Shown: positions 1,395 through 53,193 of the stretch, piece by piece
How positions within the stretch are numbered: the first letter of the stretch is position 1
Layout: each line of letters opens with the position of its first letter
Source of the DNA: an uncultured Bacteroidales bacterium
Lineage (GTDB): Bacteria > Bacteroidota > Bacteroidia > Bacteroidales > CAIXZF01
DNA: 53,193 nt
Direction of reading: 5' to 3'
Assembly (NCBI GenBank): GCA_964386485.1
Contig: CAYLTH010000005.1
Location: forward strand, 1-53,193
Translations under genes and position numbers: made by a program
Notes under the pieces: generated by a model
Told to the model about the DNA's origin: nothing
What the model saw: the letters and a program-made list of their open reading frames with translations, nothing else
Database searches by the model: none

Positions 1395-2481
1395 TACAAC
1401 GGACGTACATCCCGTCGTCCTTGCTCTTGTAGGGATTTGAAATACCACCCAGCTGCAGGGTAAACATATGCCCCATACCGTATAAACCCCAATACTGAGT
1501 TGATGACCAGTAATATCCCTGATAATACATCTGGCGGAATTTCGAACAATTATAAACCCAGCCACCGAGTAAGGCATTAAACCCGGATGATCCGCCAGAT
1601 TGCAGGACAACACCTGCGGTACCTGACCCATTATATTGATTAATTAGTGTGCCCCATTCGGGATTCGACGGGACATGCCATCCGGTCGGACAAATCCCCT
1701 GACCACCCTCCAGCGTATCGTACATCATCATTTCCCGCCATTGGTAAAGTCCGCCAAATGAAGTACAATGGCTTGTGATATTGCTGTAACAGTATTTTTC
1801 AATTACTCCATTATTTTCCTGATTACCAACTCCATATACAAATGAACCGACATTCAGGTTCTTCGTCATCCAGCATTGACTTCCAAACTGTCCGGTGGTA
1901 TAGGATTGCCCGTCGCGGGTGTCAATCAGGGAACCTCCGCAGGTAAATGATGCAGGTGGATTGTAGGATCCGTCAGCATCCCCTTTACACAATGCATTTA
2001 AATCAACACTGAGGTTTTGGCTCGTCACTACAACAGTCTTGGTCTCTATTGCCCAATCTCCACCCGGAAATGAAGAAATGGAATTGATAAACCGTTTCGA
2101 AATAAGATACGCATCCAGAGAGTTTATCTGGGAATAACTGTCGACATTGGCAGCCATCTGAGACAATGCCGGAAGTGGTGTAATATTCACAAAATGAAGC
2201 ATTACTTTGTAGGCATCAGTAGAATTCACACCACCCCATTTTTTAGGCGTTGTGGCTGTTATACTATAGGTTCCTGCAGCAATATTTGTGAATTGATAGT
2301 ATCCGTAGATGTTAACTGTTGTCTGTGAAACCGGATTTCCCCCTTGTGAAAGGTATACAGTTGCACTATCCAGGGCAACGGCATTTGCACCGGCATAATT
2401 CACATGGCCGCTTATTTTATATTGACTAAAAGCAACAGGAATTGAACAAACAGTAAGCATTAGAATCAACAATCTCTTCAT
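1384..2481 (-). CDS. Secreted FISUMP-domain protein (signal peptide, carboxypeptidase-regulatory-like beta-sandwich, degenerate dockerin-like repeat pair, C-terminal Fibrobacter succinogenes major paralogous domain)
   Basis: N-terminal signal peptide MKRLLILMLTVCSIPVAFSQ. The C-terminal half has FISUMP hallmarks: CWMTKNLN, GGLYQW, CPTGWHVPS, YYWSST, VRCIKD. The middle has VNSTDAYKVMLHF and NVDSYSQINSLDAYLISKRFI, which resemble dockerin EF-hand repeats. Confidence 0.7.
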   Translation of the reverse strand: MKRLLILMLTVCSIPVAFSQYKISGHVNYAGANAVALDSATVYLSQGGNPVSQTTVNIYGYYQFTNIAAGTYSITATTPKKWGGVNSTDAYKVMLHFVNITPLPALSQMAANVDSYSQINSLDAYLISKRFINSISSFPGGDWAIETKTVVVTSQNLSVDLNALCKGDADGSYNPPASFTCGGSLIDTRDGQSYTTGQFGSQCWMTKNLNVGSFVYGVGNQENNGVIEKYCYSNITSHCTSFGGLYQWREMMMYDTLEGGQGICPTGWHVPSNPEWGTLINQYNGSGTAGVVLQSGGSSGFNALLGGWVYNCSKFRQMYYQGYYWSSTQYWGLYGMGHMFTLQLGGISNPYKSKDDGMYVRCIKD

Positions 2482-19859: not shown

Positions 19860-20702
19860 TTAGAATTCCCAGAGGTCATGTTCAAATTTAAACAATTCTC
19901 CTTTTATTCTTTCAGATTCGAGCAAGGCATCAAGGCCCTGTGCATAATCTACAATCTTTCTGTCGTATACATTCTTTTCCTTATAGACGTAACTGTCGAA
20001 CATTCTTTTCCAGAAAACATCATCATAGGTTCTTCTTTCAGCATCATTGAAACGGTTAAACACTTCTGATTTGGCTAAAACGTTGCGTATTTCCGGGAAA
20101 TAAAGCCAGAACAGCGGGTCACGTCCTCTGAAGTTACCATTCTCATCAAAATTATCACGAACCGGACATACACCAATAATCCGAACATCCATCTGAGACC
20201 GTTGTTTATCAAAGAATTGATCTTCCTTGATACGCAACATTTTGACGTCATTTGCATTGAATTTAACCTGAATCACGGTATCATACAAATCATATGGAGG
20301 ATACGGCCTTGGTAACTGAACAGTATCTGAGGATTCCAGTCGACTCATAATTTCCTGATATGTTAAAGGAACAGTGAATTCATCTGTCGGAGTTACCTGG
20401 TAAGCTGTGATAGTACCTTCCTTCAATGCATCCATAATCACCGTCATTAAATTACGCCATTGGTTGTAAGGATTCTCAGGGTAATAAAATGGTTGATTAA
20501 TTTTCTGTCTGAAATCGATGGCACGCCAGATACGTGTTGACCAGATAACATCAGCTTCCCGTAGCGGAGAATATGGAATGGGCTTGCGCTCAACTGTATG
20601 AATCTTATCAAACACACCGTCGCGTGGCGGACTGTCCATCACCTGTGCATATGCCGAACCCAGCATAATACTTAACAGAAAAATGATGATTTGTTTTTTC
20701 AT
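19860..20702 (-). CDS. gldN: T9SS/gliding motility protein GldN (PorN)
   Basis: 280-aa exported protein, last gene in the gldK-L-M-N order. The conserved synteny is the main evidence. Confidence 0.8.
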   Translation of the reverse strand: MKKQIIIFLLSIMLGSAYAQVMDSPPRDGVFDKIHTVERKPIPYSPLREADVIWSTRIWRAIDFRQKINQPFYYPENPYNQWRNLMTVIMDALKEGTITAYQVTPTDEFTVPLTYQEIMSRLESSDTVQLPRPYPPYDLYDTVIQVKFNANDVKMLRIKEDQFFDKQRSQMDVRIIGVCPVRDNFDENGNFRGRDPLFWLYFPEIRNVLAKSEVFNRFNDAERRTYDDVFWKRMFDSYVYKEKNVYDRKIVDYAQGLDALLESERIKGELFKFEHDLWEF

Positions 20703-20725
20703 ATAAACCTCCGGTTATTTTTCAA

Positions 20726-22396
20726 TTATTTGATTTGGATACTGACAGTAGACAGTTTTCTGTTACCATCAGGACCGCTGGCTTGAATGTCCTCGATCCA
20801 GATTTTTTGGCCGGATTTAGCAGAACGAATAAACTTTTTAACGGATTCAGGAAATTGATTTCCTGTAATTTTCTGAGTAAAGATATCACCACTCTGCGTA
20901 GAAACGAAAGTGAATGCTGTTACAATAAAGTTCAGTTCAAAGTCAAAATCAGGCGGCATACGCGGGATAATCGGGCTGCTTAATAAAAGATCTTTTCCAA
21001 TAGCACCACCACTTGAGGCTCCAACATAGGCAACAGGATCCGGAACGCGTTTCACCCTGAATTCAACAGAACCCATGGATTTGCTTTTAGCTCCTTCACT
21101 TGTACTGACAGAGATTTGAGCTTTCTTTCCCTGGGCATCTTTCCCTACTGTAACGATCCAGTTCTTTCCATCGGCCGAGCGTTTCAGGTTCCCAACAGAA
21201 ATGGTTGGTTTTACCTTTTCTGACGGGATCCCCGGTACAGAAATTGAAACAGGATTATCCACACCAATATAAAATACATTCATTTTGGTAGCAGAAATGG
21301 TTAGACTTGGCTTTGCAACTACATACTCATCTTTAAAATAGTACTGATTGGTTGCACCGCTTGGTGTTTTTACTTTGATAACCCCGGCATATTTCTTTAT
21401 CCCTTCGCTGGTTGCCGGAAGCTTTAGATTCACCATACCACCAACACCTTCAATAGGGCGGGCTGCTTTAATATTGGCTTCAGTAATTGTATCAGCACCT
21501 TCAAGAATAAATACTTCAGGAGAAGTTTTAGTGTCGTAAGCAGCAACAAATACTTCGGCATTGTATTCTTCACCCTGGAAAACATAGCGGGATTGAGGTA
21601 CAACACGACCTGTTACAGCATCAAATTTATAATCCTCTTCACTGATAGAAGCGAGGAGGTGATTTACCACGTCAAACTCAAGGGATTGAATTTCATTGAT
21701 AATTTTGTTCAGAATCGTAATATCGGCAGCAAGAATGGTGTGATAGAAATTATGCTGTTCCCAGTTTTGTTTTTTGCTATCTGCATCATAGAATGGGCCG
21801 TCGGTGTCCAAACCAACCTGAAAACTTTCACGTGCCTTAGGATCAACAAAATCCATCATCGCCTTCTTATAAGCAATAAGCCGGTCTTTCAGTTCTTTTG
21901 ATTTGCCTTTTGAACCATCCTGAGAATCACCCATAAAATAACGGGTGGTTTCATCATACTTATCCTTTGTGTTAACAGTATGCAATTGAAGAGTTTTAAT
22001 TGCAACAGAGTCTTTCCCTCCGGCGGTTGGTCTGTAATCGACAAGATAATGTTCTTTGACAGCAGTAGCAGAATCTACTTTCTCGGAGACCATAATTACC
22101 TGAAGTTTAATACTTTCAATGTAATTAATCATCTCTTCGGCTAACCTGGATGCATTGCTTGCTTTGTTATAGAAAGGACCTACTTTCTCGGGGTTAATTG
22201 CATTTTGCATTTTAAACTTTGCCAGTGTCCAGTCAATTTTCCCGGCAAAACTTTTATTGGTGGTTTCCATGCTCTTGTTCACCACCAAAAATGCATTGAG
22301 GATTTCAACAGACACATTCAAAGCGAGGAGTGCCGTCAAGACCAGGTACATCATACCGATCATTTTTTGTCGCGGCGTTTCCTTATATCCAGCCAT
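20726..22396 (-). CDS. gldM: T9SS/gliding motility protein GldM (PorM)
   Basis: 556 aa. N-terminus ETPRQKMIGMMYLVLTALLALNVS matches the conserved GldM single TM helix with its Arg. A long periplasmic domain follows. Confidence 0.9.
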   Translation of the reverse strand: MAGYKETPRQKMIGMMYLVLTALLALNVSVEILNAFLVVNKSMETTNKSFAGKIDWTLAKFKMQNAINPEKVGPFYNKASNASRLAEEMINYIESIKLQVIMVSEKVDSATAVKEHYLVDYRPTAGGKDSVAIKTLQLHTVNTKDKYDETTRYFMGDSQDGSKGKSKELKDRLIAYKKAMMDFVDPKARESFQVGLDTDGPFYDADSKKQNWEQHNFYHTILAADITILNKIINEIQSLEFDVVNHLLASISEEDYKFDAVTGRVVPQSRYVFQGEEYNAEVFVAAYDTKTSPEVFILEGADTITEANIKAARPIEGVGGMVNLKLPATSEGIKKYAGVIKVKTPSGATNQYYFKDEYVVAKPSLTISATKMNVFYIGVDNPVSISVPGIPSEKVKPTISVGNLKRSADGKNWIVTVGKDAQGKKAQISVSTSEGAKSKSMGSVEFRVKRVPDPVAYVGASSGGAIGKDLLLSSPIIPRMPPDFDFELNFIVTAFTFVSTQSGDIFTQKITGNQFPESVKKFIRSAKSGQKIWIEDIQASGPDGNRKLSTVSIQIK

Positions 22397-22443
22397 AGTA
22401 TTTCGGGTTTAAAAATTCGTAAAATGAGTGATCTGAGCCAAAA

Positions 22444-23475
22444 TTATTTTGCTACGTTAACATTCATAGCGGTCAGCATGTTACCATAAACTTTGTTTAA
22501 TGCGGCAACATTCTGGGCGAGAAGATCAACACCATCTTTATACCTGGCAGTCTTGTCAATTGATTCGTTAATATTTTTAATGAAGCTGTCAAACTTAGCC
22601 TGCAGTTGATTTGCGGTTTCAACCTGTTGGGTAGAAGATTTCAGCTGAAGTTCATAAATTGCATTCAGGGCATTGAGGTTGGTCGAAATACGGTTTAATT
22701 CCTTACCATATGCACCACTTTCAAGTGCGGTAAAATCAATAGATGCAGCTGATTTAGCAAGAATTTCAGCTGATTTTGTGTATTGATCCGTCAAAACTTT
22801 TGCAGAATCTGATGCTGCTACAAAGTTACTCATCAAACCTTTTGTAACATTAAGATCACTCTTCATCGCCTCTGATGCATTATTATAAGTGCCGGCAAGA
22901 TTGTTTACAGAAGCACTTACATTCTTCAGGCTGGCAGAATATTCTGTTGAAGCCTGAACATCCATAGCCATGGCATCAGAAGTTTTCTTGTAAGCATTGC
23001 TCAGTTCGCCAACACTCTGAGAAGCAGTTTTTAAATTCTTGGTATAATCACTGGTTGCATCAGCTGCAGAGGAAATATCAGCAAGCTTGGTTGCATTTTC
23101 GCTCATGCTGTGCAAGCCTTTGCTCAGGCTTTGGATTAATTCCGGACCAATTTTGGCATCAGAAAGCATTTTATCCAATTCCTTGGTGAGGTCTTTGTTT
23201 TTCAGAGAGGGCTTTTGATTGATGTCACCTTCATTATACATACCGGCAAGTTCCGGATAAACAAGGCTCCAATCAGGCTCTACGTGAGGTGGTTCGAATG
23301 CTGAAAAGAAAAAGATCAAAGCTTCAGTACCAAGTCCGATGATCAACATGGTATTAGCTCCGGGGTAGTGGTTGATTTTAAAAAGTGCACCCAAAATAAC
23401 GACGGCAGCACCCCAACCATACAACTTGGACATGAAATTTTTGTACCCTTTACTTCTTACAAAATTGAGACCCAT
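22444..23475 (-). CDS. gldL: T9SS/gliding motility motor protein GldL (PorL)
   Basis: 343 aa. Two N-terminal TM helices with the conserved Glu (GLGTEALIFFFSAFEPPH). A long cytoplasmic helical tail follows. Confidence 0.85.
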   Translation of the reverse strand: MGLNFVRSKGYKNFMSKLYGWGAAVVILGALFKINHYPGANTMLIIGLGTEALIFFFSAFEPPHVEPDWSLVYPELAGMYNEGDINQKPSLKNKDLTKELDKMLSDAKIGPELIQSLSKGLHSMSENATKLADISSAADATSDYTKNLKTASQSVGELSNAYKKTSDAMAMDVQASTEYSASLKNVSASVNNLAGTYNNASEAMKSDLNVTKGLMSNFVAASDSAKVLTDQYTKSAEILAKSAASIDFTALESGAYGKELNRISTNLNALNAIYELQLKSSTQQVETANQLQAKFDSFIKNINESIDKTARYKDGVDLLAQNVAALNKVYGNMLTAMNVNVAK

Positions 23476-23530
23476 AACGCTTACGATGATTTAAAGATGT
23501 TAATACTAGGTTTGAAAATGAAAATAAATT

Positions 23531-24907
23531 TTAATTGTAGATGTTGGAAGAGGTAGCAGGATTGTCGTCTTTTTGTCTTCCAAGATAGGTTTGAACACAA
23601 CGGAATCCGACATAGCATTTCGAAGTATCCTGATATTCATAGCTTCTGGAGGAAACCTGCAGGTAATATCCTACATCTTTCCAGCTTCCGCCACGAATAA
23701 CTTTCCGTTTGAGGGCTGCAGGATCTGTTACTTTTGCATCATACTCATAACTCATGTTAAGATCCCATGTATAATTATAGGCTGATTCATCAAAGGCATC
23801 AGCTGTCCATTCAGACACATTGCCTGACATGTCGTACAGACCAAAATCATTGGGGGCATAATGAGCAACAATAACAGTTTGGATTCCGCCATCATCAATA
23901 TAGTTCCCGCGTAAGGGTTTATAGTTACCCAGGAAACAACCTTCGGTGTTGCGGATATACGGACCTCCCCAGGGATACGGACTAAGTTGCAGACCCCCAC
24001 GGGCTGCCCATTCCCATTCCGACTCGGTAGGTAAACGGAAATCATTTACGATAACTTCTCCCCCCTGCATATTATAACTGTGGAGTAGTTGTGAACGCCA
24101 GACACAAAATGCCTTGGCTTGCTTCCATGAAACACCTACAACAGGATAATGGTCATAGGCAGGATGCCAGAAATATTTTTCAGTCATTGGTTCATTGAAA
24201 GAATAGGCATAATCATGAACCCAGGCGAGTGTATCAGGATACACATTTATAACTTCCTTACGAATATATACTGAACGATCTTTTAAACCTTGTGGACGAT
24301 TCGACAATCCTCCTGCTTCAACATTACCGGGTGCACTGAAATCTTTTCTGGAAGCAGCTTTTAAATCAATCCAGTAATATTCAAAATTGAGTTTACGGGT
24401 ATCAATCTGTTTAACCCTGTAAAAGCGCTCATGTTCCGGAAGATACATTTCCTGCAAAACTTCTCTGGTTTCCTGGTCGGTGTAATCGATTTCGGAGTCC
24501 CAGTTTAAAAATGGAGGATCCCATGGCTCACCAAATTCATTCTCTGAAATCAGGTAGTCTTCCGGTGCACTTTCTCCCAATAAGCGGAGCGCAATAGAAT
24601 CCCTGACCCAGAATACGAACTGACGATACTCGTTGTTTGTGATCTCGGTCTCATCCATATAAAAGGCCTGCAGGGTCACCGTTTTGGGCTGGTGAACCAA
24701 AGCATATGGAACATCCTGATCTCCGGAACCCATTATGTAACTGCCGGCCGGTACGAAAACCATACCGAACGGATCAGCCTGAAAAAAGGGCTCTCTGTCC
24801 TGTACTCCGATCAATTCACCATTGCCGGAATTTTTACAACTCCAGAACGCTGTTCCGATGAGTAAGAAAAAAACAAGTTTTTTCATATTTAGCTTAGTTG
24901 ATTTCAT
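23531..24907 (-). CDS. gldK: T9SS/gliding motility lipoprotein GldK (PorK), FGE-sulfatase fold
   Basis: Lipoprotein signal ending in the lipobox FWSC. SUMF1/FGE-like domain with RGGSW. Confidence 0.9.
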   Translation of the reverse strand: MKSTKLNMKKLVFFLLIGTAFWSCKNSGNGELIGVQDREPFFQADPFGMVFVPAGSYIMGSGDQDVPYALVHQPKTVTLQAFYMDETEITNNEYRQFVFWVRDSIALRLLGESAPEDYLISENEFGEPWDPPFLNWDSEIDYTDQETREVLQEMYLPEHERFYRVKQIDTRKLNFEYYWIDLKAASRKDFSAPGNVEAGGLSNRPQGLKDRSVYIRKEVINVYPDTLAWVHDYAYSFNEPMTEKYFWHPAYDHYPVVGVSWKQAKAFCVWRSQLLHSYNMQGGEVIVNDFRLPTESEWEWAARGGLQLSPYPWGGPYIRNTEGCFLGNYKPLRGNYIDDGGIQTVIVAHYAPNDFGLYDMSGNVSEWTADAFDESAYNYTWDLNMSYEYDAKVTDPAALKRKVIRGGSWKDVGYYLQVSSRSYEYQDTSKCYVGFRCVQTYLGRQKDDNPATSSNIYN

Positions 24908-24928
24908 GTGATGAAAAAGATGTTAAAA

Positions 24929-25876
24929 CTACAAGAAACGGGTATTCCGATAACTCTTTCTGGGTTTTTCAATAATAATTTTGAAACAATAACCCGCCAT
25001 AATCTCGTGACTACCCACGCTGCCGGCTTTCGACAACTTGGAAGTAGTAATATCGTATGAATAACCTATCTTGAAATTTTTATAATGCATCCCCAGTAAA
25101 ATGGCTACTGCATCCTGAACCCTGTAACTAACGCCTCCCCAGAACTTATTATTGTATCTGACAAGTGCATTAAGATCGTATTGTGCTGAAGCTCCGTCTG
25201 TTTTGATCAACAAAGAAGGATCAATTTCGAATTCAGGATAGTTTGGAAGAATATATTCATACCCTGCGGCAAGATAATAATGACGCTGTAGCTGAACTTC
25301 TGCGCTGCCAATAGGCTTTTTTGTCTGAGACAACTGAATGGTTGACAAGCCCACAAACATTTTATCCGGAACCTTATAGAATACGCCAAACCCAAAGTCT
25401 GTCATGAAGTTAGTCTGACTATTCTTGCTTGTTAAAAGTAAATCGCCATCATCAATGGGTTTAAATTTGGCAAAATCAATCGATTTATTTAAAAATCCAA
25501 CCTGACCTCCAATCGAAAGCTTGCCATCCCCGACATTCATCCGGTAGGCATAAGAGAGACGAACACCAATATTTTTTTCATATCCGAGCTGATCCTGATA
25601 AATTGACGCACCTAAACCGCCATGCAGCAGATTTACCGGGGCATCCATCGAAAACAGCAAAGTTCTTGGGGCCACATTATCCCCATTGTCATCTTTGATC
25701 CCATACCATTGCTGACGTGCAAGCATGGTTGCACAAATGGCATCATTACTTCCTGCAAATGCAGGATTGATGAACATGTTATTGAACATGTTATGGGAAA
25801 ACTGCACCTCCTGCTGCGATTGGGCAACTTGTCCAATCATCACCAACAGAACTATGCTAATTACTATTCTTTTCAT
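24929..25876 (-). CDS. porP: PorP/SprF-family T9SS outer membrane beta-barrel protein
   Basis: Signal peptide from the Met at 25876 (MKRIVISIVLLVMIGQVAQSQ). The QFSHNMFNNMFINPAFAG N-terminus and the HEIMAGYCF end are typical of PorP/SprF. It lies immediately upstream of gldK. Confidence 0.8.
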   Translation of the reverse strand: MKRIVISIVLLVMIGQVAQSQQEVQFSHNMFNNMFINPAFAGSNDAICATMLARQQWYGIKDDNGDNVAPRTLLFSMDAPVNLLHGGLGASIYQDQLGYEKNIGVRLSYAYRMNVGDGKLSIGGQVGFLNKSIDFAKFKPIDDGDLLLTSKNSQTNFMTDFGFGVFYKVPDKMFVGLSTIQLSQTKKPIGSAEVQLQRHYYLAAGYEYILPNYPEFEIDPSLLIKTDGASAQYDLNALVRYNNKFWGGVSYRVQDAVAILLGMHYKNFKIGYSYDITTSKLSKAGSVGSHEIMAGYCFKIIIEKPRKSYRNTRFL

Positions 25877-26067
25877 AGGGGAAATCGCTTCAAAAAGGGG
25901 CATAAAATAACAACTTTTTTTTGGTATACACAAATTTATATAAAAATAAACCCCGAAAAACCCGTCTGTAGACTTGATTTTCAGATACGATTACAGGATT
26001 TATACTTCTTTTCAAGACAAAGGTTTCATCTCCATAGTTTCCTGTACTTTTGAAAAAAAGAATTTTT

Positions 26068-45339: not shown

Positions 45340-46032
45340 TTAGCCTACCTGACTTATATTATGTAAGGCAGATGGATTCATAATTTCCATCATATCTCCG
45401 TCAACCCGGATAATACCTTCTTCTTTAAATTCTTTCAGAATACGGATGGCACTTTCTTTAGACATCCCGCTTAAATCAGCCAGATCCTGCCTGGAAATAG
45501 TCATTTCAAACGGATTCTCTTCATACACATTTTCGGAAAGGTAAATTAAGGCATCCGCTATTCTTCCCGGCATCTGCTTCTGGGTAAGACTAACAACCTG
45601 CTGGAAATTCATGATGGTTTGTTTGCTGATCCGTTGAATAAATTCATCTGCAAAATCCGGATTCTCACGAATCAGTTGTTTATACGCATTTACATCCACC
45701 AGACAGGCAGAAGTATCAATAAGTGCTGCTGCACTGAAATAGTGACGGTTATCAACGTAAATTCCCGGGCCGAAGATATATGAGTGTGGTTTTACAATTC
45801 CCAATATCAGATTTTTGCCATATCCTTCGATATAAATTTTTGCCAATCCTGAAGTCAGGCATAGATAATGCGGAGAAGGAGTACCTTGTTTGAACATGAT
45901 TTCGCCGGCTTTGAAGTGCACTTCATACCGGTTTCCATCAATCATCTCCAGTTCTGTCCCCGTTAAACATCCAAAAATGGATGATTTATGCTGACAACCC
46001 ACGCAACTATGATTATTGTAATACAATGCCAT
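45340..46032 (-). CDS. Crp/Fnr-family transcriptional regulator with N-terminal Cys cluster (Fnr-like)
   Basis: 230 aa. N-terminal C-x2-C-x8-C (SCVGCQHKSSIFGC) plus an internal Cys (DTSAC), a cNMP-binding-type beta-roll, and a C-terminal HTH (SRQDLADLSGMSKESAIRILKEF). Confidence 0.85.
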   Translation of the reverse strand: MALYYNNHSCVGCQHKSSIFGCLTGTELEMIDGNRYEVHFKAGEIMFKQGTPSPHYLCLTSGLAKIYIEGYGKNLILGIVKPHSYIFGPGIYVDNRHYFSAAALIDTSACLVDVNAYKQLIRENPDFADEFIQRISKQTIMNFQQVVSLTQKQMPGRIADALIYLSENVYEENPFEMTISRQDLADLSGMSKESAIRILKEFKEEGIIRVDGDMMEIMNPSALHNISQVG

Positions 46033-46146
46033 AATAAATGATCACCCTCCAAATTGAAAATCCGCAATACCCAATCCAAAAGTAATAAAAATCATTCATA
46101 TCCATGACAATGATCCAAAAATAATTGACATCCGTCAACAGGTATA

Positions 46147-46160
46147 GTGATATATATCAA
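46147..46160. promoter_or_regulatory. Candidate Crp/Fnr-family operator GTGAT-ATAT-ATCAA
   Basis: It matches the TTGAT-N4-ATCAA consensus at 9 of 10 half-site positions. The core TGATATATATCA is a perfect 12-bp palindrome. It lies in the 281-bp divergent region between the regulator and the cytochrome operon. Confidence 0.4.
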
Positions 46161-46313: not shown

Positions 46314-47294
46314 ATGATAAACGCAATTTCAGCCATTAATCGATGTTATCCAAAAGTCATCTGGACAGCATTACTCCTTATCTGGTCTCTGGCCACATTT
46401 GCACAGGATGAAACAAAAGAGCGGGTTTATACCAATCGTGAAGACAATGCAAAATGCCTCAAGTGTCATGGAGCCTACAAATTCAATTTCCAATATGAGG
46501 AAAAAGAATTCAAATTTAAAATGCCCTCTGACTACGTAATCGATACGGCGGCGTATTCTGTATCAAATCACTGGAATTTTAAATGTATCGATTGTCACAC
46601 GGATGAATATTTGGTTGCCCCACACGATCAAACTCTTCGTTTTCAATCGATTGCATCATGCATGGATTGTCATGGAGGCGATGAGGTTTATGCCAAGTAC
46701 AATTTTGAAAAGATCGAAACAGAATTTCAGGAAAGTGTTCACAGCAGCCGTCACAGTGAGGATTTCTCATGTTGGAGTTGTCATGATGCACATACCTATA
46801 AAATTAATGCCCGAAATAAGGATCAGCAAATTACAAAAACAGTGGCTTACGACAATGCCATCTGTTTAAGTTGCCATGCAGATAATACGAAATACCAGCT
46901 TATTCGGGATACCATTAACCCGAATGTGATTGCCAAACACGACTGGCTGCCAAACCAACTGAATCATTTTCAGAAAGTCAGGTGTATTGAATGTCACACA
47001 GAAGTAAGCGACTCTACCATGGTTGCCCATAATGTCCGGACTAAAAAATTTGCTGTTAAAAACTGTGTAGAATGCCATTCTACCAATTCAATGCTTTTAA
47101 AAACCTTATTCAAGTTCCAGGTTGAAGAAAGCAAAAAACAAAAAGGCTTTTTTAATGCAAGCATGCTTTCAGACCTCTATGTTGTAGGTGCAAACCGAAA
47201 TATTTATCTGAATTACGCCAGTGCCGGAATTTTCTTTTTGGTTTTACTGGCTCTTGGAGTTCATATATTCTTCAGAATCAAACGCAAATTATAA
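46314..47294 (+). CDS. Heptahaem c-type cytochrome, exported, C-terminal membrane anchor
   Basis: 326 aa. Signal peptide. Seven CxxCH motifs (CLKCH, CIDCH, CMDCH, CWSCH, CLSCH, CIECH, CVECH) and at least seven additional His for bis-His ligation. The C-terminal TM helix is AGIFFLVLLALGVHIFF followed by RIKRKL. Confidence 0.85.
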   Translation: MINAISAINRCYPKVIWTALLLIWSLATFAQDETKERVYTNREDNAKCLKCHGAYKFNFQYEEKEFKFKMPSDYVIDTAAYSVSNHWNFKCIDCHTDEYLVAPHDQTLRFQSIASCMDCHGGDEVYAKYNFEKIETEFQESVHSSRHSEDFSCWSCHDAHTYKINARNKDQQITKTVAYDNAICLSCHADNTKYQLIRDTINPNVIAKHDWLPNQLNHFQKVRCIECHTEVSDSTMVAHNVRTKKFAVKNCVECHSTNSMLLKTLFKFQVEESKKQKGFFNASMLSDLYVVGANRNIYLNYASAGIFFLVLLALGVHIFFRIKRKL

Positions 47295-47299
47295 TAGTT

Positions 47300-47920
47300 A
47301 TGTCAAATAGAATTTTCTTATACCCGATCTGGATTCGTTTATGGCATGTTTTTAATGCCTTGTTATGCCTGGTACTCATTGTTACCGGAGTATCCATGCA
47401 ATACAGTTCTCCACAGAATGCTATAGTTGCCTTTGGTGTTGCCGTAGATTTCCATAACATCTGCGGAATTTTACTTACGATTAATTACGCGATCTTTTTG
47501 ATTGGGAATGCAATTACCCCGAATGGCAAGTTTTATATATTAAAATTTAAAGGGTTTATTGAGCGGTTGATGAAACAAGCCATGTATTACTCTTTTGGAA
47601 TTTTCAAAGGTGAAAAAGCTCCATTCCCGGTAACAGAAAAAAGAAAATTTAATCCTCTTCAGCAATTTACCTACCTCATGATCATGTATTTTGGGGTTCC
47701 CCTTGTTATCCTATCCGGTTGGCTCATGCTATATCCGACTGCTGTACTCCCTTTGCTCACAGGTCTGAATGGAATTATGATTACGGATATTATCCATGTA
47801 ATCATGGGATTTTTTATTACGATCTTTTTGGTCATACATGTGTATTTCTGCACAATTGGCCATACTCCGGTCAGCAATTTCAAAAGTATGGTGAATGGCT
47901 GGCATGATGTTCATGAATAA
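47300..47920 (+). CDS. Dihaem cytochrome b, FdnI/PhsC/Ni-hydrogenase-cytochrome-b family
   Basis: 206 aa with four TM helices. RLWHVFNA in TM1. The His pattern H16, H52, H165, H179 (the last two 14 residues apart) matches the haem ligands of formate dehydrogenase gamma-type cytochromes b. Confidence 0.8.
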   Translation: MSNRIFLYPIWIRLWHVFNALLCLVLIVTGVSMQYSSPQNAIVAFGVAVDFHNICGILLTINYAIFLIGNAITPNGKFYILKFKGFIERLMKQAMYYSFGIFKGEKAPFPVTEKRKFNPLQQFTYLMIMYFGVPLVILSGWLMLYPTAVLPLLTGLNGIMITDIIHVIMGFFITIFLVIHVYFCTIGHTPVSNFKSMVNGWHDVHE

Positions 47921-48929
47921 AAACAACAACATGGAAGAGAACGAAAAAACGGAAAACAAAAGTTCCCGGCGAAATTTCCTGAAATTGGGAGCCGGAATGG
48001 GAGCTGCAGCCCTGGCTACGACCATTGGCACATCCCTTTTATCCAAAGCAGCTGAAAACCCGGCTGCAACCGGGGATACAATAAAAGCACTAACAACCGA
48101 CGGGCAACTCATAGAAATAGACAAAGCCTTTCTGGAAGCTGCCCGGAAGAGTGTATTCATTGGCACAGATGATGCACACAAAGGTATTCCTGACCGAAAA
48201 TTTGTCATGGTGATCGATCTGGCAAAGTGCAAGAATGCACGTAAGTGCGTGGAAGCCTGTCAGCATGGCCATCATTTGCCAAAAGATCACGAATGGATGC
48301 GGGTTTATCTTCTGCAAGACGGAACAAACACATCACCATATTGGTTCCCGAGGCCGTGTTTCCATTGCGATAACCCGATGTGTGTAAGTGTTTGTCCGGT
48401 TGGAGCAACTTTTAAACGAAGCGATGGAATCGTACTCGTTGATAATGAGCGTTGTATAGGATGTAAATTCTGCATGACAGGTTGCCCTTATTCAGTGCGT
48501 GTTTTCCACTGGCATGAACCCCCAAAAGAAACAGAAGAAATTCCCTACTCCCCGGAAATGGGATTCCCTGCTAAAGAAGGAACTGTAGGTAAATGTGTAT
48601 TCTGTCCTGACAAACTTCGCAAAAATGAATTGCCCCGATGTGCAACTGCTTGTCCGATGGGTGTAATTTACTTTGGAGATGTTGTTGAAGATACCGTGAC
48701 CAATGGAACTGAAACCCTGAAGTTCAGTGAACTCATCCGGGATCGTGCGGGGTATCGTCATCTGGAAAATCTGGGTACCGAACCCAGTACCTATTACTTA
48801 CCGGCATATACGCGTCAATTCCCGATTGAAAGAGGATTTGACGGGATAGATGAGGAAGTAAAAGACCGTTACAAGGGTACAAAGGCTTATGATGATTACA
48901 TGAAGAACGCTGAAAAGACGGAGGAATAA
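47895..48929 (+). CDS. TAT-exported four-cluster Fe-S protein (NrfC/PsrB/ActB-ferredoxin-like)
   Basis: Twin-arginine signal SRRNFLKLGAGMGAAALA. The four Cys groups are CKNARKCVEAC, CFHCDNPMCVSVCP, CIGCKFCMTGCP and CVFC-x11-CATACP. Alternative starts are at 47904/47907/47913/47931. The longest form overlaps the cytochrome b gene by 26 nt. Confidence 0.85.
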   Translation: MAGMMFMNKNNNMEENEKTENKSSRRNFLKLGAGMGAAALATTIGTSLLSKAAENPAATGDTIKALTTDGQLIEIDKAFLEAARKSVFIGTDDAHKGIPDRKFVMVIDLAKCKNARKCVEACQHGHHLPKDHEWMRVYLLQDGTNTSPYWFPRPCFHCDNPMCVSVCPVGATFKRSDGIVLVDNERCIGCKFCMTGCPYSVRVFHWHEPPKETEEIPYSPEMGFPAKEGTVGKCVFCPDKLRKNELPRCATACPMGVIYFGDVVEDTVTNGTETLKFSELIRDRAGYRHLENLGTEPSTYYLPAYTRQFPIERGFDGIDEEVKDRYKGTKAYDDYMKNAEKTEE

Positions 48930-50236
48930 TGGACGCTAAAAATCTCATTAAAGAATTTGCCCCGCAAATCGAGAAAACCAGCAAAACCTGGTGGTTTTTC
49001 TTCATCATTTTTTTCATGATGGCTTTATTTGGTGTTTATGGGTTATATACTCAAATTGCCGGAGGTCATATTGTTACGGGTATGCGCGACAATGTAGTCT
49101 GGGGTGTTTATATTGTGAATTTCATCTTTTTCATGGGTGTAAGCTATGCCGGAGCACTTATTTCAGGGGTTCTTCATTTGTTTAAATCCGAGTGGCGAAA
49201 ACCGATTATGCGCATCGGAGAACTTCTGACTGTTATTTCCCTGTTAATTGGGCCAACATTCATTCTGTTTTGCATCGGACGATTGGACAGGCTTCATTTT
49301 TTAATGTTGCATCCCCGGATTCAGTCACCAATTACATGGGACGTAATTGCCATTTCAACCGATATCATCGGATGTTTTATTTTTCTGTATCTTTCCTTTA
49401 TCGAAGATTTCGCTCATTTACGCGATTATGATGGTCTGAAACTAAGTCCCTGGAGAAAAAAACTATATAAAACACTTGCACTCGGCTATACCGGTGCACC
49501 TGAGCAGAAAAAAATACTGGGCCGTATCCGCAACGTTATGGCCGCCATGATTATCGCTATTGCGGTTATCGTGTATTCTGTTCTGGCCTGGATTTTTGGC
49601 GTAACCCTGCAACCTGGCTGGCATAGTACAATTTTCGGCCCTTACTTCGTAATTGCTGCGGTATATTCCGGCGCCGGTGTTCTGATTGTGCTGATGTATA
49701 TTTTCAGAAAAGCCTATCACCTGGAAAAATATATCACCAAAAAACATTTCGTCAATGTTGGTACCATATTGTTGGTTATTGCTGCTTTTTACGCTTACTT
49801 CACTTTTAGTGATTACCTGACAAAATGGTATGGTTCTGTTAAAATGGACAAATTACTGATTGACAAGCTTTTTACAGATTATTACTGGCTTTTCATTTTG
49901 AGTAATTACGGAGGAGTTCTTATCCCTTTAATTGTAATGGGCATACCAAAATTCAGAACCATTAACAGCATAACCTTCATTGCCGTAATTGCTGTCATTG
50001 GATTATGGTTAAACCGATATCTGATTGTTGTTCCTACACTTGAAACACCCTATTTGCCTATTCAGGATACCCGTATAGATTGGATAAAATACAGTGCTAC
50101 CTGGGTTGAATGGGCTTTGATGTTTGGCGGGATCGGTTTGTTCAGTTGCCTGTTTATGCTGGCATCGAAATTTGTGCCCATCATTTCTGTATCTGAAATG
50201 ACAGAAGAAGATCATAAAGAACCCATTTTAGATTAA
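48929..50236 (+). CDS. NrfD/PsrC-family polytopic membrane subunit (large, ActC/HmcC-sized)
   Basis: 435 aa with about 10 hydrophobic helices. The N-terminal region GGHIVTGMRDNVVWGVYIVNFIFFMGVSYAG is typical of NrfD-like proteins. Its ATG overlaps the Fe-S gene stop (TAATG). Confidence 0.85.
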   Translation: MDAKNLIKEFAPQIEKTSKTWWFFFIIFFMMALFGVYGLYTQIAGGHIVTGMRDNVVWGVYIVNFIFFMGVSYAGALISGVLHLFKSEWRKPIMRIGELLTVISLLIGPTFILFCIGRLDRLHFLMLHPRIQSPITWDVIAISTDIIGCFIFLYLSFIEDFAHLRDYDGLKLSPWRKKLYKTLALGYTGAPEQKKILGRIRNVMAAMIIAIAVIVYSVLAWIFGVTLQPGWHSTIFGPYFVIAAVYSGAGVLIVLMYIFRKAYHLEKYITKKHFVNVGTILLVIAAFYAYFTFSDYLTKWYGSVKMDKLLIDKLFTDYYWLFILSNYGGVLIPLIVMGIPKFRTINSITFIAVIAVIGLWLNRYLIVVPTLETPYLPIQDTRIDWIKYSATWVEWALMFGGIGLFSCLFMLASKFVPIISVSEMTEEDHKEPILD

Positions 50237-50246
50237 AGGAGGACGT

Positions 50247-51122
50247 ATGAAAAATAATATTCTTATCCTGCTCAGCCTTATTTTTTGTCTGGGTATTACA
50301 AGACCGGCTCTCTCACAGGACGACACGAGTGCTCCTGCCTCCTATCGGGCAAGCCTTCAGATGGTTTACACCAAAACGGTTGCAGCCAAATCATTTGCCA
50401 TCAGCCTAAGTTATATCAATAATGATCCCTGGCCGGTTGCCGGGGCAAAAATAAAAATTACGGCCGGACCTGAAAAACAGATTTCTCTTGGTGAAGTAAT
50501 CACTGAACCCAACGGAAAAATTGTTTTTAACCTAAAAGCAGAAGCCTCACTGCCAAAAGATCCGGAAGGATACTATCTTGTCCAGGCAGAATATGTTGGC
50601 AACGACAGCATCCAGCCGGCAGAATCTGAAGTAAAATTTCAGGATTTTACACTATCAATGGAGCTTGATGAAGCTGATTCTTCCCGTACAATCAACATAA
50701 AATGCTTCCAGTTAAACGACAAAGGTCAGGAAATCCCTCCATCAGAAATGCTGGTGAGCGTTTATGTCGCCCGTATGTTCAGTAATCTTAAGATCGGAGA
50801 AGTAACCCTTGATTCAACAGGAATTGGCACTTTTGAATTTCCATTTGACCTGGTAGGTGATTCGATTGGTAACCTGACCATTGTTACGCGGATTGATGAA
50901 CACGAAGTCTATGGAAATGTAGAAGTTCGTCAAACTGTCAAATGGGGGATTCCCACATTTCACAAAGTACCTGTTGGCAACAGAGCCTTATGGACACAAA
51001 TTGCCCCAACCTGGATGATAATAACCCTAATGATCATGTTGGCAGGTGTTTGGGGTCATTATGCCTATGCTATTATTAATATCCGCCGGATAAAAAAAGC
51101 AGGTGAAAAAACGAAGGCCTGA
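50247..51122 (+). CDS. Exported beta-rich protein with C-terminal TM anchor, unknown function
   Basis: 291 aa. Signal peptide MKNNILILLSLIFCLGITRPALSQ. Two beta-sandwich-like segments, with no Cys/His cofactor motifs. The C-terminal helix is WMIITLMIMLAGVWGHYAYAIINI followed by RRIKK. It starts 10 nt after the NrfD-like gene. Confidence 0.6.
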   Translation: MKNNILILLSLIFCLGITRPALSQDDTSAPASYRASLQMVYTKTVAAKSFAISLSYINNDPWPVAGAKIKITAGPEKQISLGEVITEPNGKIVFNLKAEASLPKDPEGYYLVQAEYVGNDSIQPAESEVKFQDFTLSMELDEADSSRTINIKCFQLNDKGQEIPPSEMLVSVYVARMFSNLKIGEVTLDSTGIGTFEFPFDLVGDSIGNLTIVTRIDEHEVYGNVEVRQTVKWGIPTFHKVPVGNRALWTQIAPTWMIITLMIMLAGVWGHYAYAIINIRRIKKAGEKTKA

Positions 51123-51202: not shown

Positions 51203-51604
51203 ATGAAACTAAAAATGTTAGCCTACGCAATGGTCCTGATTTTTGGATCAGCTATGTTACTGTCAATGACTTCTGCCCCACAGGCAAAGCCCTGGAACAC
51301 TCCTGACAAGTACATGAAAATGAAAGCTCCCAAATCAACTCCGGAATCTGTAAAAGCCGGCAAAGAACTCTATGCAAAATTTTGCAAATCCTGCCATGGT
51401 GTTACAGGTAAAGGTGACGGTACAAAAGCTGCCAGTCTGAAAACAAAAATGCTTCCACTTGGAGACAAAGCATTCAAATCACTCGTTGATGGTGACAAAT
51501 ACTACAGGTCATTTATCGGACGTGACGAGATGCCGAACTTCGAAAAGAAAGTTGCTGATGAAGCAGCTCGTTGGTCAATCATTCATTACATGGCTACCCT
51601 GTAA
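51203..51604 (+). CDS. Monohaem class-I cytochrome c, exported (copy 1)
   Basis: 133 aa. Signal peptide, a single CKSCHG haem site, and a distal Met candidate in GRDEMPNF. Confidence 0.85.
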   Translation: MKLKMLAYAMVLIFGSAMLLSMTSAPQAKPWNTPDKYMKMKAPKSTPESVKAGKELYAKFCKSCHGVTGKGDGTKAASLKTKMLPLGDKAFKSLVDGDKYYRSFIGRDEMPNFEKKVADEAARWSIIHYMATL

Positions 51605-51623
51605 TTCTGATTCAAGATTTTCG

Positions 51624-51658
51624 AAGAGGCTGTCTCCTAAAGGCAGCCTCTTTTTTTT
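51624..51658 (+). terminator. Intrinsic terminator after cytochrome c copy 1
   Basis: Stem AAGAGGCTG / CAGCCTCTT (9 bp) with an 11-nt loop, followed by T8. Confidence 0.75.
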
Positions 51659-51783: not shown

Positions 51784-52185
51784 ATGAAATTAAAAATGAT
51801 TGCTTACGCAATGGTTCTGGTATTCGGATCAACTTTATTGTTGTCCATGACCAGTACACAGGATTCTAAACCCTGGAAAACACCTGACAAATACATGAAG
51901 ATGAAAGCTCCGAAATCAACACCGGAGACTGTAAAAGCAGGGAAAGAACTGTATGCTAAGTTCTGCAAATCATGCCATGGCGCTACCGGTAAAGGTGATG
52001 GAACCAAAGCTGCCAGTCTGAAGACCAAAGTTAATTCCTTCTCAGAAAAATCATTTAAATCAGTTACCGACGGAGATAAGTATTTCAGATCATTTATTGG
52101 AAGAGATGAAATGCCAAACTTCGAAAAGAAAGTTCCTGAAGAAGCAAGCCGCTGGGCTATCATTCATTACATCAACACGCTGTAA
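51784..52185 (+). CDS. Monohaem class-I cytochrome c, exported (copy 2)
   Basis: 133 aa. It is a paralogue of the 51203 gene, with the same CKSCHG site and GRDEMPNF motif. Confidence 0.85.
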   Translation: MKLKMIAYAMVLVFGSTLLLSMTSTQDSKPWKTPDKYMKMKAPKSTPETVKAGKELYAKFCKSCHGATGKGDGTKAASLKTKVNSFSEKSFKSVTDGDKYFRSFIGRDEMPNFEKKVPEEASRWAIIHYINTL

Positions 52186-52267: not shown

Positions 52268-53059
52268 TTAACGAACAACCACTTTTTCCTGGTGGCGAAC
52301 AGCACCTTGCTGGATATCAAGAATATAGACTCCACTATTTAACCCTTCAGGTAGTTTAACAGACTCGTGATGCATCCCGCCTGCCAAGCTCGTATTTAAC
52401 AGTCTGGCTACTTCGCGTCCGGTAAGATCAAACAAACGAAGCTGCACAGCGCCCTGAGTTTCCATTGCAAAATCAACATTGATCATATTATTCACCGGAT
52501 TTGGGTATACTGAAAAACCACCACTAACTGAGTTTTCCATCAAACCAGTTGTACTTTCGGGTATGATCAGTGTACAGAGTTTTGTTACAGGTTCATTTAA
52601 GGTAAAGGCTCCATAAAAAGTCACATTGCCGGTTCCTGCAACAGGGGCTGTCCAGGAAAATGTTTTTACATAAGGATTCGCAGTGGAGCCGGAATTTTGA
52701 GTCACTGCTTTATTGCCATTGACAAGATGGGTTCCTGCTCCTGCGGTCAGGGTGCCAACCAATGCTCCGGTCGGTGTTTGAGGACTTACTTCAAACCCTT
52801 TTTTACTGGAACCGGTCAGGGTAATTGTTATTGTATAGGTAGTTCCTGGTACATAACCTCCCGGAGGAACATCAGAAGTCATATAACCGGTAGCACTGGT
52901 TGCCGAACCACCATGGCATTGAACACAATTTTTGGCATCTCCGGGAGATCCGGTATAGCCTCCGGGGCTGCCTCCGGGATACTTAGTATCTCCACCATAC
53001 GACTGTAATAATAAGGCCAGTGGAACCAAGCCTGTAATTAAAAGGTAGTTTCTTTTCAT
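52268..53059 (-). CDS. T9SS-sorted secreted protein with a single N-terminal CxxCH haem-binding motif
   Basis: 263 aa. Signal peptide. A Gly/Pro-rich segment leads to NCVQCHGG. A beta-rich domain of about 130 aa follows. The C-terminal T9SS sorting domain is FSVYPNPVNNMINVDF...SGVYILDIQQGAVRHQEKVVVR. Confidence 0.75.
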   Translation of the reverse strand: MKRNYLLITGLVPLALLLQSYGGDTKYPGGSPGGYTGSPGDAKNCVQCHGGSATSATGYMTSDVPPGGYVPGTTYTITITLTGSSKKGFEVSPQTPTGALVGTLTAGAGTHLVNGNKAVTQNSGSTANPYVKTFSWTAPVAGTGNVTFYGAFTLNEPVTKLCTLIIPESTTGLMENSVSGGFSVYPNPVNNMINVDFAMETQGAVQLRLFDLTGREVARLLNTSLAGGMHHESVKLPEGLNSGVYILDIQQGAVRHQEKVVVR

Positions 53060-53193
53060 ATATTGAATTGTTTATACAAAAATATATCAAAAAATTCTAA
53101 AATAAAAAAAACATCACTAATTTAGACCCTTTCTGATTAGCGATGAATAAGCACTTTCCCGTTCCGGATATAGTTCCCGGATGAAAAGCGATA

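Follow-up and report, generated by a model that had tools for sequence, protein, structure and literature searches.

A Reeler-type cargo protein of the type IX secretion system with a conserved CxxCH motif: a candidate surface cytochrome of Bacteroidales

A 53,193-nucleotide stretch of DNA from an uncultured Bacteroidales bacterium (contig CAYLTH010000005.1 of GenBank assembly GCA_964386485.1, positions 1 to 53,193; this whole stretch is referred to below as the window) encodes a protein of 263 amino acids (aa) that combines an N-terminal Reeler-type domain with a type IX secretion system (T9SS) sorting signal and contains a single CxxCH motif. The protein belongs to the NCBIfam family NF041895 (choice-of-anchor V) and to the Reeler superfamily, and its predicted architecture places it among the type A cargo proteins of T9SS. 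In the clade to which it belongs, its gene is repeatedly found beside a cluster of genes for cytochromes and a quinone-interacting membrane complex, and this gene linkage is the strongest of the new evidence. We propose, with moderate confidence, that the protein would be a monohaem c-type cytochrome delivered to the cell surface by T9SS, and that it would there form the outermost partner of the quinone-linked complex encoded beside it. For the window's clade this is a reasonable reading; it is not extendable to the whole family.

Domain architecture of the cargo protein

The features of the gene and its product are listed in Table 1. The N-terminus of the protein (MKRNYLLITGLVPLALLLQSYGG) reads as a basic n-region followed by a hydrophobic h-region, with neither a lipobox cysteine nor a twin-arginine motif, and the putative signal peptide (MKRNYLLITGLVPLALLLQSYG) is helical at residues 3-20 in the AlphaFold2 model. 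Beyond it, a Gly/Pro-rich stretch (YPGGSPGGYTGSPGDAKN) leads directly into CVQCHGG, in which CVQCH is the sole CxxCH of the protein; one further cysteine, C161, is not conserved in the homologue alignment. The domain that contains the motif is matched by the choice-of-anchor V model NF041895 over aa 30-151 (64.7 bits versus a cutoff of 42) and, marginally, by the Reeler model PF02014 (22.9 bits versus a gathering threshold of 21), and several of the homologues carry a precomputed PF02014 match. It includes a conserved loop, G-S-P-G-G-Y-T-G-S-P-G-D, ahead of the Cys-Cys-His site. At the other end of the protein, both models of the T9SS C-terminal sorting domain (CTD) score above their cutoffs over aa 184-263 (TIGR04183, 38.5 bits versus 23; PF18962, 43.5 bits versus a gathering threshold of 27), and the PDB sequence matches of this region are the solved T9SS CTDs 8glk_D and 8glj_D. 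By its predicted architecture (a Sec signal, a CTD and secretion machinery encoded in the same window), the protein appears to be a bona fide T9SS type A cargo.

A first-pass annotation of the window, made by a model from the letters and the translated open reading frames (ORFs), had described the signal peptide, the Gly/Pro-rich stretch, the single CxxCH, a beta-rich domain behind it and the sorting domain, all of which are borne out by the ORF and motif reading, by the strands at residues 53-166 of the AlphaFold2 model and by the CTD profiles. The 'choice-of-anchor' family that it suggested turns out to be NF041895. This entry holds a domain definition only, with no assigned function, and the Reeler fold, the motif statistics and the linkage to cytochrome and DUF5777 genes described below are not part of it; we found no paper on choice-of-anchor V.

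Table 1 Features of the cargo gene, its surroundings and related modules (window coordinates unless a locus is named)
Feature	Coordinates	Strand	Remarks
T9SS cargo gene (choice-of-anchor V/Reeler domain and T9SS CTD)	52268..53059	minus	263 aa, ATG start; from the ORF list and profile hidden Markov models
Sec-type signal peptide, about aa 1-22	52994..53059	minus	read from the sequence; cleavage site putative
CVQCH (C45-V-Q-C48-H49), candidate haem c attachment or metal site	52913..52927	minus	
Choice-of-anchor V/Reeler-fold beta sandwich, aa 30-168	52556..52972	minus	NF041895 (aa 30-151), AlphaFold2, Foldseek
T9SS type A C-terminal sorting domain, aa 184-263	52271..52510	minus	TIGR04183, PF18962; follows a linker modelled at low confidence, aa 173-179
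GC-rich hairpin, 11 bp stem, between two convergent stop codons	52206..52231	none	A-run on one side, T-run on the other
3' end of the upstream gene, which leaves the window edge	53137..53193	minus	last 57 nt of the window; encodes …YRFSSGNYIRNGKVLIHR and the stop codon
Crp/Fnr-family regulator, divergent from the cluster	45340..46032	minus	
Seven-CxxCH multihaem cytochrome c	46314..47294	plus	C-terminal membrane helix
Membrane cytochrome b	47300..47920	plus	PF01292, PhsC-like
NrfC/DsrO/HmcB-like 4Fe-4S protein	47895..48929	plus	exported by twin-arginine translocation
NrfD/DsrP/QrcD-like integral membrane quinone-interacting subunit	48929..50236	plus	
Conserved 291-aa protein, no known family	50247..51122	plus	signal peptide, beta-rich, C-terminal membrane helix
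Tandem pair of genes for monohaem class I cytochromes c	51203-51604, 51784-52185	plus	80% identical
T9SS core genes	19860..25933	minus	all above NCBIfam cutoffs
gldN	19860-20702	minus	
gldM	20726-22396	minus	
gldL	22444-23475	minus	
gldK	23531-24907	minus	
porP/sprF	24929-25933	minus	
Lipoprotein cytochrome and DUF5777 module	L084 10807-12098; L001 12935-13901; L057 10789-13803		in relatives

Linkage to a cytochrome gene cluster

In the window, the cargo gene converges on the second of the two tandem cytochrome c genes, the last gene of a cluster that also encodes a multihaem cytochrome c, a cytochrome b, an iron-sulfur protein and a quinone-interacting subunit (Table 1). The hairpin between the two stop codons is flanked by an A-run and a T-run, so that it could terminate transcription in both directions, and it is likely a bidirectional terminator shared by the two genes, in agreement with the convergent arrangement and common terminator noted in the first-pass annotation.

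For comparison, 80 loci were taken from species-representative genomes (Bacteroidota-type metagenome-assembled genomes) and their ORFs were searched with the proteins of the window cluster; searches for identical copies of the window protein and of cluster member P0287 gave no match, and L011 and L087 were used as the nearest contexts of the window locus. The cluster lies within 10 kb of a homologue of the cargo gene in 11 different genomes besides the window, as full copies (L001/L005, L004, L006, L009, L011, L015, L020 and L021) or as copies cut by contig ends (L008, L010 and L025), and every one of the 12 cluster-linked loci has CxxCH. In distance clustering, the nine domains nearest to that of the window include eight that lie within 10 kb of the same cluster.

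The position of the gene relative to the cluster varies among these relatives. It is convergent at the 3' end of the cluster in the window, L011 and L087; on the same strand and directly upstream, in an operon-like arrangement, in L084 and L085; next to crp in L001, L006, L010 and L021; and between a second multihaem cytochrome gene and the rest of the cluster or the barrel gene in L012, L015 and L025, three loci in which crp/fnr also lies within about 2.1 kb of the orthologue. Thus the linkage holds across at least four gene orders at 43-56% protein identity and, as described next, in a second deep clade as well. Genes for an M28 peptidase, Lgt, methylmalonyl-CoA mutase and a NosD-like cargo flank the locus in the window, L011, L084, L085 and L087 alike; relative to these common flanks, with the cargo gene on one side and the M28 peptidase and lgt genes on the other, the whole cluster of the window and of L011 runs in the opposite orientation to that of L084 and L085, and a crp/fnr gene lies at the junction.

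When the neighbours within 4 kb were clustered without supervision, the two most recurrent families among the 80 loci were DUF5777 (13 loci) and a PSCyt1-like lipoprotein (12 loci). DUF5777 is described in Pfam as a 'membrane bound beta barrel', its members here end in …RLWNF, and we found no literature on it. The small lipoprotein carries the motif PIF…C(x2 or x4)CHG and is weakly similar to the LIC11213 lipoprotein family; this cytochrome family alternates between CxxCH (CAGCH) and CxxSGCH, as does the choice-of-anchor V family itself. The deep clade formed by L028, L034 and L057, with domains about 47% identical, has the choice-of-anchor V gene (coaV) in an operon of overlapping genes, in the order coaV, a dihaem lipoprotein of PSCyt1 and cbb3 type (PF07635, 47.7 bits; motif CAMSGCH), a cytochrome c, an OB-fold protein, a YceI-like protein and DUF5777. 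Against NF041895, the L057 protein of this clade scores 85.9 bits and a CxHCM paralogue in L086 scores 62.2 bits.

Conservation of the Cys-Cys-His site

The family is large: an exhaustive search of representatives of clusters at 50% identity gave 2103 relatives at E ≤ 1e-3, of which 766 reach E ≤ 1e-10. Nearly all of the 150 representatives among the matches listed have T9SS-type tails; these matches are the closest ones, of T9SS type, and the conservation counts rest on them. A single CxxCH is found in 118 of the 120 nearest homologues, which are all of about 260 aa and nearly all T9SS-tailed, and in the two alignments A1 and A2 both cysteines, C45 and C48, are invariant and H49 is conserved in at least 90% of the sequences. 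Among 146 new representatives from the matches listed, CxxCH occurs in 97, and the remaining 49 have variants at the same place.

A census of 317 family sequences parsed by pattern gave the forms Cx2CH (83%), Cx4CH (11%), Cx3CH (2.8%), CxHCM (1.6%), Cx5CH (0.6%), CxCH (0.3%) and CxxC-SAH (0.3%). Both cysteines are effectively invariant, the Cys-His dipeptide is found in about 98% of the sequences and the spacing is 2-4 residues in 97%, a range that is that of known haem c sites. With this conservation, in the close homologues as in the census, chance occurrence of the motif is ruled out. The Cx4CH variants read CxxSGCH, CTASGCH and CATAGCH, that is, they are identical or nearly identical to the true haem sites of cytochrome c3 structures (CGTAGCH in 2cth, CATAGCH in 1j0o). 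In CSHCM, CGHCM and CTHCM the histidine is replaced, and by methionine alone; these CxHCM forms derive from the common CxHCH by one change at the ligand position. Such a replacement is to be expected of a metal-ligand residue and does not indicate which metal is bound. Methionine is another classical ligand of iron.

The CxHCM subgroup comprises P0223 (L086, 6604-8789), P0108, P0145, P0146 and P0156, and the gene of one of them overlaps a DUF5723 gene.

Relationship to the Reeler superfamily

AlphaFold2 modelled the full-length protein with a mean predicted local distance difference test score (pLDDT) of 91.4 and the N-terminal domain (residues 22-172) with a pLDDT of 93.4 and a predicted template modelling score of 0.89. 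In a Foldseek search of the PDB, the only strong single-domain match was the reeler domain of F-spondin, and the eight top matches were all reeler chains (E = 7e-8 to 1.5e-5, template modelling (TM) score 0.55-0.71, about 21% identity); with the N-domain model, the reeler structures 2zot and 3coo were matched at E = 7e-8 to 1e-7 and TM scores of 0.64-0.71. Next in rank came beta sandwiches of adhesins, pilins and hydrophobins. At the sequence level, the domain profile gave a weak match to spondin-1 in a PDB sequence search (E = 0.01), the two sharing the blocks Y.PG.tY.vT, (K/R)GF and W.AP.aGtG.V, and the core of animal FRRS1-type Reelers was aligned to the bacterial profile by hhalign with a probability of 81%. 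The N-terminal domain of the window protein is thus, as judged from its model, a Reeler-type beta sandwich.

The animal Reelers of FRRS1 and of the 'defense proteins' begin with YPxGKV..C..M.P.HG (P0268, P0270, P0271, P0275 and P0281; alignment A3). The distance from their histidine to the following PG is 21-22 residues, compared with 22 (H49 to P71-G72) in the window protein, so that, by spacing rather than by alignment, H49 would correspond to a histidine conserved in part of the eukaryotic Reelers. The YPxG start of the animal domains likewise lines up by spacing, together with the histidine, with the bacterial YPGG…CxxCHG. A ligand-type site may therefore be conserved in the Reeler superfamily and missing from F-spondin.

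The fold is accordingly the one seen in the Reeler domains (PF02014) of F-spondin (2zot, 2zou and 3coo), FRRS1/SDR2 and the insect 'defense proteins'. The animal domains lack a CxxCH, haem c cannot be attached to them in the secretory pathway, and F-spondin is without the histidine as well; the bacterial proteins differ from them in the extra Gly/Pro-rich loop described above, in the second cysteine and in the T9SS tail.

Proposed function and alternative explanations

We envisage that the pre-protein would be exported by Sec and that the periplasmic cytochrome c maturation system would attach haem to C45 and C48, with H49 as the proximal ligand; the model places a short helical turn at residues 46-49, as is usual for CxxCH. 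The haem might then be clasped by the Gly/Pro-rich loop against the Reeler-type sandwich. The folded holo-protein would be recognised via its type A CTD, pass through the T9SS translocon and be displayed on, or released from, the surface. There it could serve as the outermost redox partner of the Crp/Fnr-associated membrane complex, composed of the seven-haem cytochrome c, cytochrome b, the NrfC-like Fe-S protein, the NrfD-like quinone subunit and soluble cytochromes c, and electrons would be given to, or taken from, an extracellular substrate. In many related genomes, the PSCyt1-like lipoprotein cytochrome and the DUF5777 barrel are part of the same module and could bridge the outer membrane.

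A number of observations weigh against a surface cytochrome, and the first of them concern the protein itself. No cytochrome or other haem protein is among the Foldseek PDB matches of either the full-length or the N-domain model, and a PDB profile search matched reaction-centre cytochrome subunits at the level of the motif only and insignificantly (E = 0.26-5), although the unmatched fold leaves room for a new cytochrome fold. Animal Reeler domains are, to our knowledge, not haem proteins. In alignments A1 and A2 there is no invariant Met, second His or Lys elsewhere in the domain that could provide the sixth (distal) ligand. Across the family the cysteine spacing ranges from 1 to 5, with the CxHCM form in addition, and we know of no maturation of sites with the spacings of CxCH and Cx5CH.

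Other such observations come from the genomes. The window, L011 and L020 have neither DUF5777 nor the PSCyt1-like gene, and a tblastn search of the window with the DUF5777, PSCyt1-like lipoprotein, second multihaem cytochrome and ResB sequences of related loci gave no match; with the barrel and the lipoprotein cytochrome missing, no route across the outer membrane is visible here. Furthermore, 63 of the 80 loci (about 79%) have no CxxCH gene within 5 kb, which leaves 17 that do. Long paralogues (350-1600 aa) carry the domain at the N-terminal tip of SprB/PKD/FN3 repeats that precede the T9SS tail, an adhesin-like architecture devoid of redox domains, for which conduction of electrons from the cell is implausible. 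CxHCM paralogues exist, and genomes carry several paralogues: GCA_964605655.1 encodes the cluster-linked P0065 along with a CSHCM paralogue that adjoins DUF5723 and has no cytochrome gene next to it. Clearly, the linkage to cytochromes is clade-specific and the family as a whole is not devoted to respiration.

The surface cytochrome proposed in the first-pass annotation thus stands in part: a T9SS cargo, a CxxCH invariant in the clade and a linked cytochrome cluster speak for it, and the fold, the sixth ligand and the family-wide gene contexts do not. Of the checks suggested along with it, conservation in homologues held for the CxxCH (118 of the 120 closest sequences and every cluster-linked copy), and no invariant candidate for a distal ligand was seen in the alignments; co-occurrence with the cytochrome operon was found in the window's clade, in several gene orders, and not across the family.

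The main rival, somewhat unlikely in our view, is that the Cys-Cys-His site holds a non-haem metal (Cu, Fe or Zn, for example) or acts as a redox dithiol on a Reeler surface protein that would capture or present a metal or other ligand, with the linked cluster reflecting the handling of a substrate or cofactor, much as in a surface metallochaperone or in the docking of metal chelates, rather than electron flow through haem. It would account for the fold, which is that of a Reeler and not of a cytochrome, for the Met and His ligand-type residues that FRRS1-type Reelers have at the same place with no CxxCH, and for the lack of a conserved sixth haem ligand; the permutation of the ligand set (CxxCH, CxHCM, CxxC-SAH, spacing 1-5) is of a kind that metal sites tolerate, and the domain tips adhesin-like stalks in the paralogues. 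However, a Cys-His dipeptide in about 98% of the sequences with a spacing of 2-4 in 97% is the signature of haem c, and the Cx4CH variants copy not only the sites of cytochrome c3 but also those of the adjacent PSCyt1 cytochrome. Moreover, the neighbouring genes encode cytochromes, no metal-transport gene is evident among the annotated neighbours, and we know of no Cys-x2-Cys-His copper or zinc site on a beta sandwich.

It is improbable, in turn, that haem c is attached to a protein that does not form the end of an electron conduit and instead senses or scavenges sulfide, NO or O2, detoxifies in a peroxidase-like manner, or stores and hands over haem. An open coordination site would suit the absence of a visible sixth ligand, the window has no component that bridges the outer membrane, the long-stalk paralogues could still bind haem or catalyse with it, and many family members are unlinked to respiratory genes. 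Against this, the gene keeps turning up, in the window's clade, in tight linkage with a quinone-interacting cytochrome complex and with soluble cytochromes c, and L028, L034 and L057 pair the gene with the DUF5777 barrel, the PSCyt1-type lipoprotein cytochrome and a further cytochrome c.

Still less probable, and the poorest fit to the data, is a Reeler adhesin or lectin that binds glycans or surfaces, with a structural cysteine pair and an inherited adjacency to the cluster: animal Reeler domains do bind heparin, lipopolysaccharide and glucans, the next-best Foldseek matches are adhesin and pilin domains, the long paralogues are adhesin-like, and the flanking genes common to the window, L011, L084, L085 and L087 imply that part of the adjacency in this subgroup, which counts against a functional link, may be inherited synteny, but the association is convincing because it extends beyond that subgroup to other arrangements, with at least four gene orders at 43-56% identity, and to the second deep clade, a cytochrome and an outer-membrane barrel head the list of recurrent neighbours, and a cysteine pair spaced by two residues with a near-invariant histidine that only methionine replaces is atypical of a structural disulfide.

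Comparison with known systems and implications

Most of what is understood about extracellular electron transfer comes from Shewanella and Geobacter, whose multihaem lipoproteins or filaments reach the outside via type II secretion or related routes. The window locus resembles the MtrC/OmcA-MtrAB, Geobacter porin-cytochrome and Cyc2 systems in that a (here putative) surface haem protein is encoded with periplasmic multihaem cytochromes and a quinone-linked module of the inner membrane, and in many relatives, although not in the window, the likeness to porin-cytochrome systems extends to a barrel and a lipoprotein cytochrome. The differences are considerable. The window protein has one haem motif, not ten, and an unrelated Reeler fold, and it would be delivered by T9SS with a cleavable CTD rather than by type II secretion with a lipid anchor; the DUF5777 barrel has about 250 aa, far fewer than MtrB, and lacks a CxxCH, and no barrel is encoded in the window.

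The cluster itself has the subunit composition of the Hmc, Nhc, Qrc and DsrOP complexes. Its best NCBIfam similarities are to DsrO, QrcC and HmcB for the Fe-S protein and to DsrP and QrcD for the membrane subunit, all below the equivalog cutoffs. Beyond the subunits of those complexes, the cluster encodes the conserved beta protein of 291 aa with its membrane anchor as well as two cytochromes c of class I, and in this lineage a T9SS cargo gene is attached to it.

Cytochrome f offers an analogy and no more: in both proteins a beta sandwich comes after a CxxCH that lies some 20 residues into the mature chain. The sequence of cytochrome f starts with YP…, as does the window protein. Homology is nevertheless rejected, given that Foldseek returned cytochrome f for neither of the two models and that the leading Tyr is not kept throughout the family.

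In FRRS1, a Reeler domain is fused to a transmembrane b-type cytochrome, and here such a cytochrome is encoded beside a Reeler protein. We consider it unlikely that anaerobic Bacteroidota possess an as yet unrecognised outer-membrane electron conduit made up of the PSCyt1-like lipoprotein, DUF5777, a T9SS-anchored Reeler monohaem cytochrome and an Hmc/Nhc-like quinone complex, and that the Cys-(Cys/Met)-His site is an ancestral redox or metal centre of the Reeler superfamily. If true, an ancestral centre of this kind would explain why FRRS1/SDR2 join the Reeler domain to DOMON and cytochrome b561.

We found no paper describing a T9SS-exported cytochrome, nor one describing a surface cytochrome of Bacteroidota, in keeping with the remark in the first-pass annotation that T9SS is not a known route for extracellular electron transfer. 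Bacteroidota are abundant in sediments, digesters and guts. If haem is bound, T9SS would be shown to take a covalently bound redox cofactor out to the cell surface, c-type cytochromes would gain a new fold, and a compact gene set (coaV, the PSCyt1-like lipoprotein, DUF5777 and the NrfCD/cytochrome cluster) would be available to Bacteroidota for redox exchange with minerals, humics or partner cells; the conserved His-containing N-terminal motif of animal Reelers might then likewise have a redox or metal role. If no haem is bound, the 2103 cluster representatives at 50% identity would still mark out a large family of surface proteins that share a conserved Cys-Cys-His site of metal type.

Genomic surroundings

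The T9SS machinery that the first-pass annotation had placed in the window is indeed there, in the form of gldK, gldL, gldM, gldN and porP/sprF (Table 1). Maturation of cytochromes c is implied for this genome by the ten CxxCH sites in four neighbouring genes; no Ccs or Ccm gene was seen among the window ORFs scanned, with some 16 ORFs of at least 120 aa lying outside the scan, and in L001 the cluster is followed by ResB, a protein of cytochrome c biogenesis. The 291-aa protein is encoded in every complete copy of the cluster, at 32-50% identity. The tandem cytochrome c genes are about 180 nt apart, and the first is followed by a terminator-like hairpin (51623-51653), so that the second copy may have a promoter of its own.

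A scan for FNR boxes (TTGAT-N4-ATCAA, at most 2 mismatches) gave 62 sites in the window compared with 63 expected, that is, no enrichment. The same scan found no FNR-box-like site upstream of the cargo gene, and shared control by Crp/Fnr is neither supported nor opposed by these results. Two FNR-box-like sites, TTGACATCCGTCAA and GTGATATATATCAA, are located at 46125-46160 in the intergenic region between the crp gene and the multihaem cytochrome gene.

Upstream of the cargo gene, the peptide encoded at the window edge (…YRFSSGNYIRNGKVLIHR) matches the C-terminus of a NosD-like beta-helix T9SS cargo, the L087 protein ending in …YRYSSGNDNRNGKVVIQR. Most likely, to judge by this match, the gene at 53137-53193 encodes such a cargo, as does the gene 78 nt upstream of the L087 orthologue, which would make the studied gene the second of two T9SS cargo genes on the same strand. 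In relatives, the NosD-like neighbour is a parallel beta-helix of 745-758 aa with a T9SS tail (L087, 3040-5316); it adjoins the orthologue in L084, L085 and L087, and homologues are present in L009 and L020 as well. The 77-nt spacer upstream of the cargo gene holds TATTTTTG (53084-53077, minus strand), which we take to fit the Bacteroidota -7 promoter consensus TAnnTTTG. Finally, at 1384-2481 (minus strand) the window encodes a Fibrobacter succinogenes major paralogous domain (PF09603) with a hint of an SdrD B-like domain, unrelated to the cargo gene.

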